Part shown: positions 1,501 to 5,412 of the stretch, one piece after another | Numbering within the stretch: position 1 is the stretch's first letter | Layout: each line of letters begins with the position of its first letter | Origin: a virus | Lineage: Duplodnaviria; Heunggongvirae; Uroviricota; Caudoviricetes | Virus record (IMG/VR): IMGVR_UViG_2718217860_000001 | DNA: 49,063 nucleotides | Reading direction: 5' to 3' (one strand) | Notes under the pieces: model-generated | What the model was told of the DNA's origin: nothing | Databases searched by the model: none | What the model saw: the letters and a program-made list of their open reading frames with translations, nothing else | Program-made: the position numbers and the translations under genes

Positions 1501-2400
1501 TTATGTCTGGATGTGGTCGTCAACACATCCTCTTTTAAATACAGGCGCTTTTACCTTAGTTGGATCATCTGTTTTAAAGATTTTCAATCGTTCACTGAAG
1601 AACATTACCTCAGATCCTTTGTACCGATCTTGAGCACTGTAGTTTATTCCATATACTAATGATGATGTCTTATACATAGCTTGGATCTCAGGAGTGTTAT
1701 CGTAAGAAACAATCCAAGGCGTTTTAATATTATTCTGTACGACTTTTGCAACCCTAACATGATCATCATGATCATAATGGTTGATATATAAACCTTTACC
1801 TTTTATGTAATAAGGTGGATCCAAATATGTTAATGAGTTTTGTGGCAATTGAATAACTATTTTTTTTATGAAATCAATTGCATCCATGTTATATAAATCT
1901 ATTCTGTGACGATTTTCTGATATTTTATGGATTCGAGAAATCAAATCACTCTTATTATAGCGAGCGTCAAGCTTCCATTTCCCTTCTTGATTTTTACCGC
2001 CAATTACACCACCTTTTAATATTCCAGAACGATTTGTTCTATTGAGAAAAAAGGTTGAGAAACCAATTGTTAAAAGATCATGGTCTTTAGGATTATTAAT
2101 TATATCTTTCTGCCTAAACCATTCATCCATTGTAACTTCTGTTCTTTCAATTAAAGAACATAATTGATCTGCATGATTTAATACACTGTGCCAAAAAGCA
2201 TAAACAGAAATATTAATATCATTAAGGATGATTTTTTCAGCTGCATTTAGATGTAACAGTTTCAATGCTAAACCAGCACCCCCAGCATATGGTTCGGCAT
2301 AATGTATAGGCGAAAGATTATTTTCTTCAATAATCCGAAGCATGAAATTTGCAAGCTTGCCTTTACCGCCAGGATAGCGAAGTGGGGTGTTAAAACGCAT
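1501..2400 (-). CDS. Dam-family (D12 class) N6-adenine DNA methyltransferase
   Basis: 299 aa. N-terminal AdoMet-binding region RYPGGKGKL...EPYAGGAGL resembles E. coli Dam (AGGK...EPFVGAGS); catalytic DPPY motif present (LDPPYYIKG). Low-GC gene with AGAGG RBS. Confidence 0.8.
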   Translation of the reverse strand: MRFNTPLRYPGGKGKLANFMLRIIEENNLSPIHYAEPYAGGAGLALKLLHLNAAEKIILNDINISVYAFWHSVLNHADQLCSLIERTEVTMDEWFRQKDIINNPKDHDLLTIGFSTFFLNRTNRSGILKGGVIGGKNQEGKWKLDARYNKSDLISRIHKISENRHRIDLYNMDAIDFIKKIVIQLPQNSLTYLDPPYYIKGKGLYINHYDHDDHVRVAKVVQNNIKTPWIVSYDNTPEIQAMYKTSSLVYGINYSAQDRYKGSEVMFFSERLKIFKTDDPTKVKAPVFKRGCVDDHIQT

Positions 2401-2431
2401 ATGATACCTCTAAATGTCAGATCTAAAGTAT

Positions 2432-2465
2432 ATCAAAAAAAGGGCTTTATGGCCATCACATAAAA
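2432..2465 (-). terminator. imperfect hairpin with U-tract between the ATPase and methyltransferase genes
   Basis: Minus-strand stem-loop (aagggttttatg...ccataaagccc) followed by a T-run, in the 79-bp gap 2401..2479. Confidence 0.3.
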
Positions 2466-2479
2466 CCCTTTTTAATCAA

Positions 2480-4059
2480 TTAGTTATCTGACAGATATGA
2501 TGAGATGGTAGCAGAATCGACACCATGTCCACTTATCATAATAACTTTAAGACTCTTTATTAGTTCATTCTTGAAGCTATCCGATTGCACAGGATTTTTC
2601 TCGACCCAATATCGATATGGGTTATCTTTAACTCGTCCTTTGACTTGGTCCTGAAATTGAGTCGTATGTGCAAAATCTTTAAACAGTTTTCTCACTCTCC
2701 CGCCATGATTTTTGTTAACTTTTTTATAATTATCTATAAGGATTTTTAAATCAATCGGAGCGTTACCAATCTTTAGCGTTGTAATTATGTCTTTAGCTGT
2801 TTTCATAAAAACAGATTTTGTAAATTTATTTTTATTTTCCCAATATGCATCATCAGGTGGTAAATTATATAAAAACTCAAAAATCATTTGGTCTGGAGGT
2901 AAGGTGCTTGGAAGCAAACATAAGTTTTTTTCTTTTTTGGCTTTTTTTGCATTAGCACTGTTGTCGTGAACAACATCACCGTCTAAGACGATCAAGCTTT
3001 TAGCTGTAAATTCTGGTATTTTTCTTGCCATTAAGTCAAGCATGGCAGAGCAGCTAATATTTATATTCCCTAATGGATTTAATATTTTATTTATTTTTCG
3101 ATCTGTTATCAATTGTTTGAAAAAGTCGAAACCTTCTTTGTCTTCAAAATATACATTTGCTTTTGGAAGACAAATGTCATCATTAATTTTTACAGTTTCA
3201 ACATGTAAATCAGCGTGGATATCTGTCCATGAAAGATTATTCTTTGTTTTAATATCTCCATATGTGTCTGTAAGATATATTGTTTTAAAGCTATCACTAT
3301 CTTGTTTTGAACGATTATAGATATCCTCTATTATTAATGGAGAGTGCGAGGTCATGATTATTTGCAGATCGTATTGTTTTGCTGCTTTAGTTAGAATATT
3401 AATTAGCTCTAACTGTGCAGCAGGGAAAAGACCTGCATCGGCTTCATCAATTAACAATATTCCGCCATGATAATCAGAATAAGTTTCCTTCAATCTTTTA
3501 AATGAAAAAATTGCTTGGATTAATTGTCCAACATTATCTTCACCAACAGATACTGATTGGTGATCATAATTGTCACCATGGACAACCATTGAATCGATAG
3601 TACCTTTTGTTGCTGTTACTGAGCTTCCATTGTTTTTTAGTAAGAGTTGGTTACTCATCATTCTGATTTCATCAGAATTTTCATTGATGTACTGAACATC
3701 CCGTGTTGAGTAATCAGTCCTTAATGTAATAGGAAGAAGTCGTGCTAAGCTTAAAAAAATAACAGGATGAGTAACGTTTCTACTTTGGTTTTTTTCCGGT
3801 ATTGAATCATTTCCCCTGACTACAGGCCTTGATTTATCTCTGTCACTGTAGCTGTATAAACCTAATGTTAGTTTTTCAAGATGTTTGTTCGATGCACCAT
3901 CATAGACACTAATTTTGACGTCCATTGAACCAGGAACATCAAATTGTTCTGAAAGCCTAAAATGTTCGCTGAAAGCTGACTTGAAGCTGCCATTTGTTAA
4001 TGTTTTATATTGTGTTAAATCAGTCTCAGGGTTTTTGGTAAAGTCCTTTGTAAAGCTAA
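2480..4059 (-). pseudogene. C-terminal part of an IS5-interrupted ABC ATPase with Toprim-like C-terminal domain (OLD-like)
   Basis: Reading frame is open upstream of the called Met (3925) all the way to the IS5 boundary at 4059, with no start codon. Contains Walker B ILLIDEADAGLF and H-loop MTSHSP typical of AAA_15/AAA_21 ABC ATPases. C-terminal region has a candidate Toprim signature: KEGFD and, ~50 aa later, LIVLDGDVV. Confidence 0.75.
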
Positions 4060-5254
4060 GGAAGGTGCGAATAAGCGGGGAAATTCTTCTCGGCTGACTC
4101 AGTCATTTCATTTCTTCATGTTTGAGCCGATTTTTTCTCCCGTAAATGCCTTGAATCAGCCTATTTAGACCGTTTCTTCGCCATTTAAGGCGTTATCCCC
4201 AGTTTTTAGTGAGATCTCTCCCACTGACGTATCATTTGGTCCACCCGAAACAGGTTGGCCAGGGTGAATAACATCGCCAGTTGGTTATCGTTTTTCAGCA
4301 GCCCCTTGTATCTGGCTTTCACGAAGCCGAACTGCCGCTTGATGATGCGAAACGGGTGCTCTACCTTGGCACGGATGCTGGCTTTCATGTATTCGATGTT
4401 GATGGCCGTTTTGTTCTTGCGCGGATGCTGCTTCAAGGTTTTTACCTTGCCGGGACGCTCGGCGATCAGCCAGTCCACATCCACCTCGGCCAGCTCCTCG
4501 CGCTGTGGCGCTCCTTGGTAGCCGGCATCGGCTGAGACAAATTGCTCCTCTCCATGAAGCAGATTACCCAGCTGATTGAGGTCATGCTCGTTGGCCGCGG
4601 TGGTGACCAGGCTGTGGATCAGGCCACTCTTGGCATCGACACCAATGTGGGCCTTCATGCCAAAGTGCCACTGATTGCCTTTCTTGGTCTGATGCATCTC
4701 CGGATCGCGTTGCTGCTCTTTGTTCTTGGTAGAGCTGGGTGCCTCAATGATGGTGGCATCCACCAAAGTGCCTTGGGTCATCATGACGCCTGCTTCGGCC
4801 AGCCAGCGATTGATGGTCTTGAACAATTGACGGGCCAGTTGATGCTGCTCGAGCAGGTGGCGGAAATTCATGATGGTGGTGCGATCCGGCAGGGCGCTAT
4901 CCAGGGATAATCGGGCAAACAGGCGCATGGAGGCGATTTCGTACAGGGCATCTTCCATGGCACCGTCGCTCAGGTTGTACCAATGCTGCATGCAGTGAAT
5001 ACGCAGCATGGTCTCCAGCGGATAGGGCCGTCGGCCATTGCCCGCCTTGGGATAAAACGGCTCGATGACAGCGGTCATATTCTGCCATGGCAGAATCTGC
5101 TCCATGCGGGAGAGGAAAATCTCTTTTCGGGTCTGACGGCGCTTAGTGCTGAATTCACTATCGGCGAAGGTGAGTTGATGGCTCATGATGTCCCTCTGGG
5201 ATGCGCTCCGGATGAATATGATGATCTCATATCAGGAACTTGTTCGCACCTTCC
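4060..5254. mobile_element. IS5 insertion sequence, complete 1195 bp
   Basis: Terminal inverted repeats GGAAGGTGCGAATAAG (4060..4075) and CTTGTTCGCACCTTCC (5239..5254). Flanked by 4-bp target-site duplication CTAA at 4056..4059 and 5255..5258. Length equals canonical IS5. Confidence 0.95.
4206..5186 (-). CDS. insH: IS5 transposase InsH
   Basis: 326-aa [16 protein letters not shown]...RQWERSH, near-identical to E. coli IS5 InsH as I recall it. Confidence 0.95.
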
Positions 5255-5412
5255 CTAAATATTTGGGCGATAATGCCAAGAATTGTGGATTTAGATGTGC
5301 CATTTTTACCACAAATAACAGTTAGGCGAGAACCAAACTCGATGTTTATATTTTTCAGTCCGCGAAACTTCACAACATTTATATTTTTTAGTTTGGTAAT
5401 TTGATTTGCCAT
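5255..5412 (-). pseudogene. N-terminal part (Walker A) of the same IS5-interrupted ABC ATPase gene
   Basis: MANQITKLKNINVVKFRGLKNINIEFGSRLTVICGKNGTSKSTILGIIAQIF carries the P-loop GKNGTSKST. After removing IS5 plus one CTAA copy (1199 bp) the frame continues without a stop into 4055 and on to 2480, giving a ~576-aa protein. Confidence 0.7.

Follow-up and report, generated by a model that had tools for sequence, protein, structure and literature searches.

The stretch of DNA analysed here, called the window throughout, is the whole of the IMG/VR record IMGVR_UViG_2718217860_000001 (49,063 nucleotides, Caudoviricetes). It is an Escherichia coli lambdoid prophage integrated at ssrA, the gene for transfer-messenger RNA (tmRNA), which is located at 48662-49024 on the minus strand. 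Between the prophage integrase and a 27-nt repeat of ssrA at 1396-1422, the boundary of the cargo region, lie two co-oriented minus-strand genes. One encodes an ABC-type ATPase with a putative Toprim-like C-terminal domain and is interrupted by IS5, and the other encodes an adenine DNA methyltransferase (methylase). This pair is the subject of the present analysis, and the features of the locus are as follows.

1396-1422, no strand: attachment-site repeat, a 27-nt exact copy of the 3' end of ssrA (tmRNA), identical to 48662-48688, with 0 chance matches expected
1501-2400, minus strand: intact N6-adenine DNA methyltransferase gene, 299 aa, D12 class, PD-Lambda-5_B family, with the S-adenosylmethionine (AdoMet) motif EPYAGGAG and the catalytic DPPY
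2402-2473, minus strand: structured part of the 79-bp gap between the two genes, predicted fold of -25.9 kcal/mol, z -5.0, with 0 of 200 shuffles as stable
2480-4055, minus strand: 3' part of the ATPase gene, residues 53-577 and the stop codon, with the ABC insert, Walker B, the H-loop and the C-terminal Toprim-like and helical domain (~338-577)
4056-4059, no strand: CTAA target-site duplication, copy 1
4060-5254, minus strand: IS5 insertion, 1195 bp, inverted ends GGAAGGTGCGAA..., guanine plus cytosine (GC) content 0.55-0.58, with thousands of matches in E. coli genomes
5255-5258, no strand: CTAA target-site duplication, copy 2
5259-5412, minus strand: 5' part of the ATPase gene, which covers residues 1-51 and runs into codon 52 (MANQITKLKN..., Walker A GKNGTSKST)
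5471-6637, minus strand: prophage tyrosine integrase gene, 388 aa, annotated 'site-specific integrase' in E. coli 042 and JJ1886

The GC content of the cargo between the integrase and the repeat is 0.29-0.36, compared to ~0.45 in the flanks. Together with the integrase gene and the exact ssrA repeat this dip confirms the low-GC, integrase-proximal cargo position noted in an initial annotation, which had been made without database searches. The same annotation had proposed that an intact ATPase gene would be regained by deleting 4060-5258. An equivalent join of the minus-strand segments 5412..5255 and 4055..2480, which removes IS5 and one CTAA copy, gave a single in-frame open reading frame (ORF) of 577 aa, where ~576 aa had been expected. 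The restored ORF has no further lesion and shares 99 % identity with P0001, a database protein that is intact. An alternative ATG lies upstream at 5463, and RefSeq uses the 577-aa form in intact copies. The transposase ORF of IS5 is itself intact (326 aa, 4206-5186, minus strand). As IS5 is the sole lesion in an otherwise 99 % identical ORF, the insertion looks recent; it appears that the ATPase gene was recently inactivated in this prophage and that only methylation can stay active. What is left is a 481-aa ORF (2480-3925, minus strand) starting at an internal Met (residue 97), which has no Walker A loop and retains Walker B and the entire Toprim-like domain.

The two genes are conserved and inherited together as a module at mobile-element cargo sites. 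An IMG/VR scan with the family alignment gave 79 loci, the neighbours of which were classed by hidden Markov models (HMMs) built from known pair loci. Four loci ending right after the ATPase gene and one truncated locus could not be evaluated and were set aside, and 11 of the 79 belong to a separate subclade of ~40 % identity that has no methylase. In the remaining 63 loci, where the ATPase is at least 39 % identical to that of the window, a PD-Lambda-5_B-type methylase was adjacent in all 63: immediately downstream and co-oriented in 60, convergent in one, upstream in one, and in one with PD-Lambda-5_A in between. Counted over the evaluable loci with an ATPase at this level of identity outside the subclade, the figure is 63 of 64. 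Complete genomes of E. coli gave a similar result, as 85 of 5426 carried the pair, two alleles of 89.7 % identity included, and both genes were contiguous in 85 of 85. The survey for uninterrupted homologue pairs that had been suggested thus found the two genes side by side. The methylase was intact wherever the ATPase was intact. Neither a helicase nor a reverse transcriptase was found next to the ATPase in the contexts examined.

The cassette is common among prophages and integrative and conjugative elements (ICEs) of Enterobacterales, Pseudomonas, Vibrio and Halomonas, and its insertion positions are diverse. The pair was found beside an S24 repressor in prophages of Pseudomonas aeruginosa, between antiterminator Q and holin in a lambdoid prophage of Yersinia, in an ICE and a prophage at icd, both of E. 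coli, at ssrA in E. coli 042 (enteroaggregative E. coli, EAEC) and JJ1886 (sequence type 131, ST131), and in Citrobacter phage phiNP (OR565852.1). For the intact pair of 042 or JJ1886 the protein accessions are WP_001596855.1 and WP_023363292.1. In phiNP the methylase ORF of 293 aa (4814-5695 in the extracted locus L094, ~43926-44807) lies downstream of an 'AAA family ATPase' and is covered by no GenBank feature. Identities of ATPase and methylase to the copies of the window fall together (0.99/1.00, 0.88/0.91, 0.76/0.80, 0.61/0.65, 0.50/0.46 and 0.40/0.52), and over 40 dereplicated pairs the pairwise identities of the two proteins correlate with r=0.76.

In the initial annotation the loss of the ATPase and the survival of the methylase were read as the pattern expected of a toxic nuclease and a protective or independent methylase. 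The ATPase is indeed broken and the methylase intact in this window, which is compatible with a toxic effector, but the pattern does not recur: among the 85 pair-carrying complete E. coli genomes neither an IS5 insertion in the ATPase gene (0 of 85) nor any other loss of the ATPase with the methylase kept was found. As the IS5 hit is a single event and the intact pair is stable in all 85 other genomes, it carries little weight as an argument.

The methylase matches Pfam MethyltransfD12 (1.8e-19) and, in PADLOC, MTase_II (PDLC03358, 3.4e-107) and PD-Lambda-5_B (PDLC04018, 5.8e-124), the latter over residues 1-282 against profile positions 1-283 of 291. Its earlier description as a Dam-family enzyme is correct as regards an intact methylase of the D12 class, but it is not an orthologue of Dam, since it scores 55 bits against NCBIfam dam (TIGR00571), for which the cutoff is 114.85. 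Identity with M.EcoMIV of ST131 was also rejected, as that enzyme belongs to a different prophage and a different locus. The JJ1886 copy of this gene may correspond to M.Eco1886ORF14565P.

PD-lambda-5 was found by functional selection in E. coli (ECOR7) and recorded as 'ParB/HEPN, methyltransferase'. It gave protection from nine of the ten phages tested, and its defence has been validated for the ECOR7 A+B pair only (Vassallo et al. 2022, PMC9519451). Vassallo et al. read it as a compacted prophage 'RM+Abi' system, i.e. restriction-modification plus abortive infection. Cloning of PD-lambda-5 required an mrr-deleted host (PMC9519451), and its methylase family is therefore taken to modify the chromosome. 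The ATPase-linked methylases are 46-54 % identical to bona fide PD-lambda-5 methylases of E. coli, no further from them than from one another. Elsewhere in E. coli, methylases of the PD-Lambda-5_B family are paired with a 501-aa protein, at the P2 hotspot, or with a ParB/Srx protein, beside Q. The ATPase is not PD-Lambda-5_A, which was absent from its 25 best PADLOC matches listed (the best being PtuA, 3.5e-20), while true PD-Lambda-5_A proteins score 1e-97 to 1e-207 on their own model. There is no PD-Lambda-5_A gene in the window, where the interval from integrase to methylase holds the ATPase gene and IS5 only. All three genes do, however, occur together in four loci:

Enterovibrio: the ATPase gene, followed by a convergent methylase gene and PD-Lambda-5_A (3.7e-207)
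IMG/VR locus L056: with PD-Lambda-5_A (8e-97)
Vibrio phage ValB1MD-2 (P2-like, NC_055862): an ATPase of 517 aa (30 % identity) and PD-Lambda-5_A in two ORFs
Metagenome contig L096: an ATPase of the short clade and a weaker PD-Lambda-5_A-like protein (1.7e-14)

In ValB1MD-2 the split PD-Lambda-5_A (L095, 5452-7004) consists of an N-terminal half of 252 aa (4e-109) and a C-terminal half of 265 aa (2e-69), and the split could be natural or due to a frameshift or a sequencing error. A contig from a Halomonas metagenome-assembled genome (NZSS01000037.1, L097) has the order 525-aa protein (1350-2927), methylase, ATPase; the 525-aa protein has no Pfam or PADLOC match and may be a third kind of partner. 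The PADLOC model PDLC04607 (PDC-M38A, 715 positions) aligns at ~55-196 with the ParB-like N-terminus of PD-Lambda-5_A and at ~380-695 with the ABC head of the window's ATPase. The two effector types therefore seem to be linked by naturally occurring fusions of ParB to an ABC ATPase. Judged by these sequence relationships, the cassette is best described as a variant of PD-lambda-5 in which an ABC-Toprim effector would replace ParB/HEPN.

The nature of this effector was assessed with the restored protein. Each of the motifs quoted in the initial annotation was present: Walker A GKNGTSKST at residues 35-43, Walker B LLIDEAD at 253-259, the H-loop TSHSP at 288-292, KEGFD at 359-363 and LIVLDGDVV at 407-415. 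The HMM searches proposed there for the ATPase matched AAA_15 (3.1e-15) and AAA_21 (3.6e-12) over residues 1-296, with additional RecF/RecN-like Pfam matches, and a profile search of the PDB matched PtuA, the Thermus scotoductus OLD protein (6p74), AriA and Rad50 heads. The three ABC ATPase motifs are invariant in an alignment of 40 homologues of 50-99 % identity. Hma, MADS (MAD3, 1e-7), Menshen NsnB and PDC-M38A were considered as the identity of the ATPase and rejected, their similarity being generic to the ABC head. An AlphaFold2 model of the full-length P0001, with a pLDDT of 87.9, was closest to OLD (6p74, 7e-12), GajA and retron Eco8, each over ~600 aligned columns, and these matches outranked those confined to the head (PtuA, SMC, Rad50).

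The C-terminal domain was more difficult to place. No Pfam family matched residues 300-577, DUF4435 did not match the restored protein, and Pfam searches with 20 isolated C-terminal domains of the family gave nothing meaningful, with no sequence-level match to Toprim_OLD. A sequence-profile search of the PDB with the C-terminal alignment gave only noise, and Foldseek found no significant match to the model of the domain. With phmmer only 192 relatives were found among 1.84 billion representatives. The distant relatives of 500-525 aa are neither Toprim by Pfam nor HEC-04 by PADLOC (1e-25), and gave no link to a curated Toprim family; the phmmer relatives also include a shorter ATPase clade, likewise linked to a methylase. 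HEC-04 is a validated single-gene defence consisting of an ABC ATPase fused to TOPRIM; its activity requires the Walker A lysine and E319/D375/D377, and it is toxic when induced (Payne et al. 2024, bioRxiv 10.1101/2024.01.29.577857). IbfA of IncI1 plasmids is a homologue of HEC-04 (PMC12111858). The PADLOC HMM of HEC-04 matched the full-length protein in three fragments (56.7 bits, E 3.8e-16). When the C-terminal domains of 20 family members were searched in isolation, it matched 9 of them (best 7e-5), the domain of the window itself not being among those matched.

A Toprim-like glutamate and a DxD had been recognised in the initial annotation. The DxD was borne out as D411/D413, which are invariant over the 40 homologues, whereas the E of KEGFD is not invariant and the conserved acidic residues are instead E357/D358 of NVYFED. 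The model of the window's own residues 338-577 (pLDDT 93.7) shows a parallel alpha/beta core of four strands and, after it, a helical bundle; E357/D358 would follow strand 1 and D411xD413 strand 3, as in Toprim. The proposed OLD-like nuclease is thus supported in its overall architecture and, with moderate confidence, in its C-terminal Toprim fold, while matches to Toprim_OLD and DUF4435 were not obtained. Sequence and model together suggest that the restored protein is a divergent ATPase-Toprim protein of the OLD/HEC-04 kind, the Toprim assignment being the moderately supported part.

The gap between the ATPase stop codon and the methylase start is 79 bp, as had been stated previously. It contains a strong terminator-like hairpin with a U-run (2437-2473) and a promoter-like TGGCCA-17-TATACT with an extended TG, running from 2455 to 2427. 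The methylase can therefore probably be expressed independently of the ATPase gene and is probably transcribed from its own predicted promoter. A second predicted hairpin (2402-2435, minus strand) covers the ribosome-binding site (GAGG) and the start codon of the methylase and might limit its translation.

On the simplest reading the pair would act in a manner resembling restriction-modification. The methylase would mark the resident DNA, both chromosome and prophage, at a conserved motif, and the ATPase-Toprim protein would sense unmarked incoming nucleic acid through ATP binding or hydrolysis and cleave it; alternatively, it might turn active when the methyl mark is absent. Lysogens would in this way be shielded from superinfecting phages. 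We give even odds, a probability of about 0.5, to a PD-lambda-5 variant that works by such a mechanism, identification and mechanism counted jointly. More tentatively, and at somewhat worse than even odds, the methylase-coupled OLD-like proteins could constitute a class of ATP-dependent, methylation-gated Toprim restriction, with the PD-Lambda-5_B lineage serving ParB/HEPN effectors, ABC-Toprim effectors or both.

Several points weigh against a restriction-modification-like PD-lambda-5 variant. The sister subclade of ~40 % identity, like HEC-04 and IbfA, exists without a methylase. Its members (L071-L080 and L090; e.g. L072, 3158-5659) are 614 aa long with a ~60-aa N-terminal extension, and the ATPase gene starts 4 bp downstream of a cI-like helix-turn-helix/S24 repressor gene with no methylase within 4 kb; this is a stand-alone version of the effector. 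The chassis therefore needs no methylation against self-killing, a property that suits an abortive-infection sensor no less well than a restriction enzyme. Furthermore, the insert of the ATPase and the DNA-contact region of the methylase are highly conserved, whereas restriction-modification systems typically diversify in specificity, and a Toprim catalytic domain is not known to us from any restriction enzyme. The mechanism described above is a proposed one.

The alternative that survives best, and which we still consider rather unlikely, is a guard of the PrrC or PARIS type that aborts infection. The ATPase-Toprim protein would stay latent as long as it binds the methylase or senses that the enzyme is active. 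Inhibition or sequestration of the methylase by a phage factor, or the appearance of a DNA mimic, would trigger cleavage of tRNA or DNA and so abort the infection; methylation would then not be the mark by which the nuclease tells self from non-self. The methylase-less relatives and the strong conservation of both regions described above speak for such a guard, as does the fact that relatives with the same chassis act as abortive sensors: tRNA is the target of PARIS AriA/AriB and reportedly also of P2 Old, and HEC-04 is toxic when induced. The 'RM+Abi' interpretation of PD-lambda-5 by Vassallo et al. points in the same direction, and where all three genes cluster, the ATPase could provide an abortive layer behind a PD-Lambda-5 A+B core. 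A methylase that is always intact beside an intact ATPase is also expected of a guard. On the other hand, in the common two-gene form a solitary methylase without a restriction partner would be an odd thing to watch, physical contact between ATPase and methylase is hypothetical, and the co-divergence of the two proteins is equally explained by simple co-inheritance.

A second alternative, that two independent genes merely travel together, seems improbable. The ATPase would be an abortive nuclease like HEC-04/IbfA, and the methylase a phage enzyme for anti-restriction or the tuning of expression. In its favour, some ATPase-Toprim defence genes do stand alone, prophages often encode orphan adenine methylases (PMC4659465), and the methylase has an apparent promoter of its own after a terminator-like hairpin. 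Adjacency has nevertheless been held down to 39 % ATPase identity and over unrelated phage and ICE insertion sites, with parallel divergence, and PD-lambda-5, a validated two-gene system, has a methylase of this family as an obligate component. That the pair serves replication, repair or segregation of the element instead of defence, with the methylase as an epigenetic regulator, is very improbable: ABC ATPase and Toprim combinations do occur in proteins of DNA repair and topology (PMC12111858), to which the RecF/RecN-like matches could be related, but the pair is low-GC cargo at 'moron' positions of otherwise unrelated elements, is missing from most related prophages, as the 85 carriers among the E. 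coli genomes indicate, and has only defence proteins as its closest characterised relatives.

Some further features of the prophage were observed. Directly past the ssrA repeat the window contains a second integrase-like ORF of 423 aa (1-1272, minus strand), annotated 'integrase domain-containing protein' in E. coli 042, and two mobile elements therefore apparently lie in tandem at ssrA. In JJ1886 the ssrA prophage is followed by glaH instead of this ORF. Rfam matches were obtained side by side for isrK (64 bits) and C4 antisense RNA (82 bits) at 11931-12119 on the plus strand, an arrangement resembling the antirepressor control region of the P1/P7 type, and for the IS009 RNA family (222 bits) at 45162-45360 on the plus strand, near the tail-fibre end.

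No description of an ABC-Toprim or OLD-like gene paired with a Dam-like methylase was found in PADLOC v2 or in the open-access and preprint literature, which covered the PD-lambda-5 papers, the OLD review and class scheme, a 2026 OLD preprint, the HEC paper, the Aravind-lab Dnd paper, DefensePredictor (text and supplements) and the domain-centric discovery paper. The suggestion of an undescribed system therefore holds for the exact pairing but not for a wholly new system, since the methylase is the PD-Lambda-5_B of a validated one. Both components belong to known families, the methylase to a named system, and it is the combination that looks uncatalogued. If the interpretation is correct, the OLD-like nucleases would have a fourth, methylase-coupled genetic context and the PD-lambda-5 methylase would be a self-marking module shared by different effectors, providing a handle on the mechanism of PD-lambda-5 and on how ABC-Toprim effectors decide to fire. 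The cassette is present in clinically important lineages of E. coli (ST131 JJ1886 and EAEC 042), and because PADLOC v2 misses it, defence inventories and predictions of phage-therapy host range overlook it. For the present genome the consequence is modest, as the effector is dead and an orphan methylase is left.

The cassette can be compared with the closest known systems. With the OLD family it shares the N-terminal ABC-type ATPase with Walker A, Walker B and H-loop. The partner is different: OLD proteins have none in class 1 (P2 Old and T. scotoductus OLD), a UvrD-like helicase in class 2 (GajA) or a retron in class 3 (retron Eco8), and the OLD review lists no methylase-linked class (PMC10568477). 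PARIS, with its AriA ABC ATPase and AriB DUF4435/Toprim protein, and AbiL differ in that the protein described here is fused and has no DUF4435 match; in addition, PARIS has no methylase. EcoprrI-PrrC, which is cited in PMC10799925, is comparable as a DNA-modification enzyme coupled genetically to a nuclease with an ABC-like nucleoside triphosphatase domain ('RM+Abi'). PrrC, however, is a HEPN-type anticodon nuclease inside a full type I restriction-modification system, whereas the cassette combines a Toprim-like domain with a D12 methylase that stands alone. The likeness to type II restriction-modification lies in the predicted DNA methyltransferase (MTase_II, D12, DPPY).

HEC-04 and IbfA also combine an ABC ATPase and a TOPRIM or TOPRIM-like domain in one polypeptide, and the spacing from E to DxD is 56 in HEC-04 and 54 here. 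The similarity is nevertheless distant, since the fragmented 56.7-bit alignment does not reach a family-level match, the protein described here exceeds HEC-04 and IbfA in length by ~60 aa and has a more extensive helical region at its C-terminus, and it is nearly always coupled to a methylase, while HEC-04 and IbfA are single genes. PD-lambda-5 is likewise a two-gene prophage cargo and has a methylase of the same family, but its effector is ParB/HEPN, in place of which the cassette has an ABC ATPase with a Toprim-like domain. PADLOC v2 holds no model for an ATPase with PD-Lambda-5_B, and its rules for PD-lambda-5 would miss the pair.

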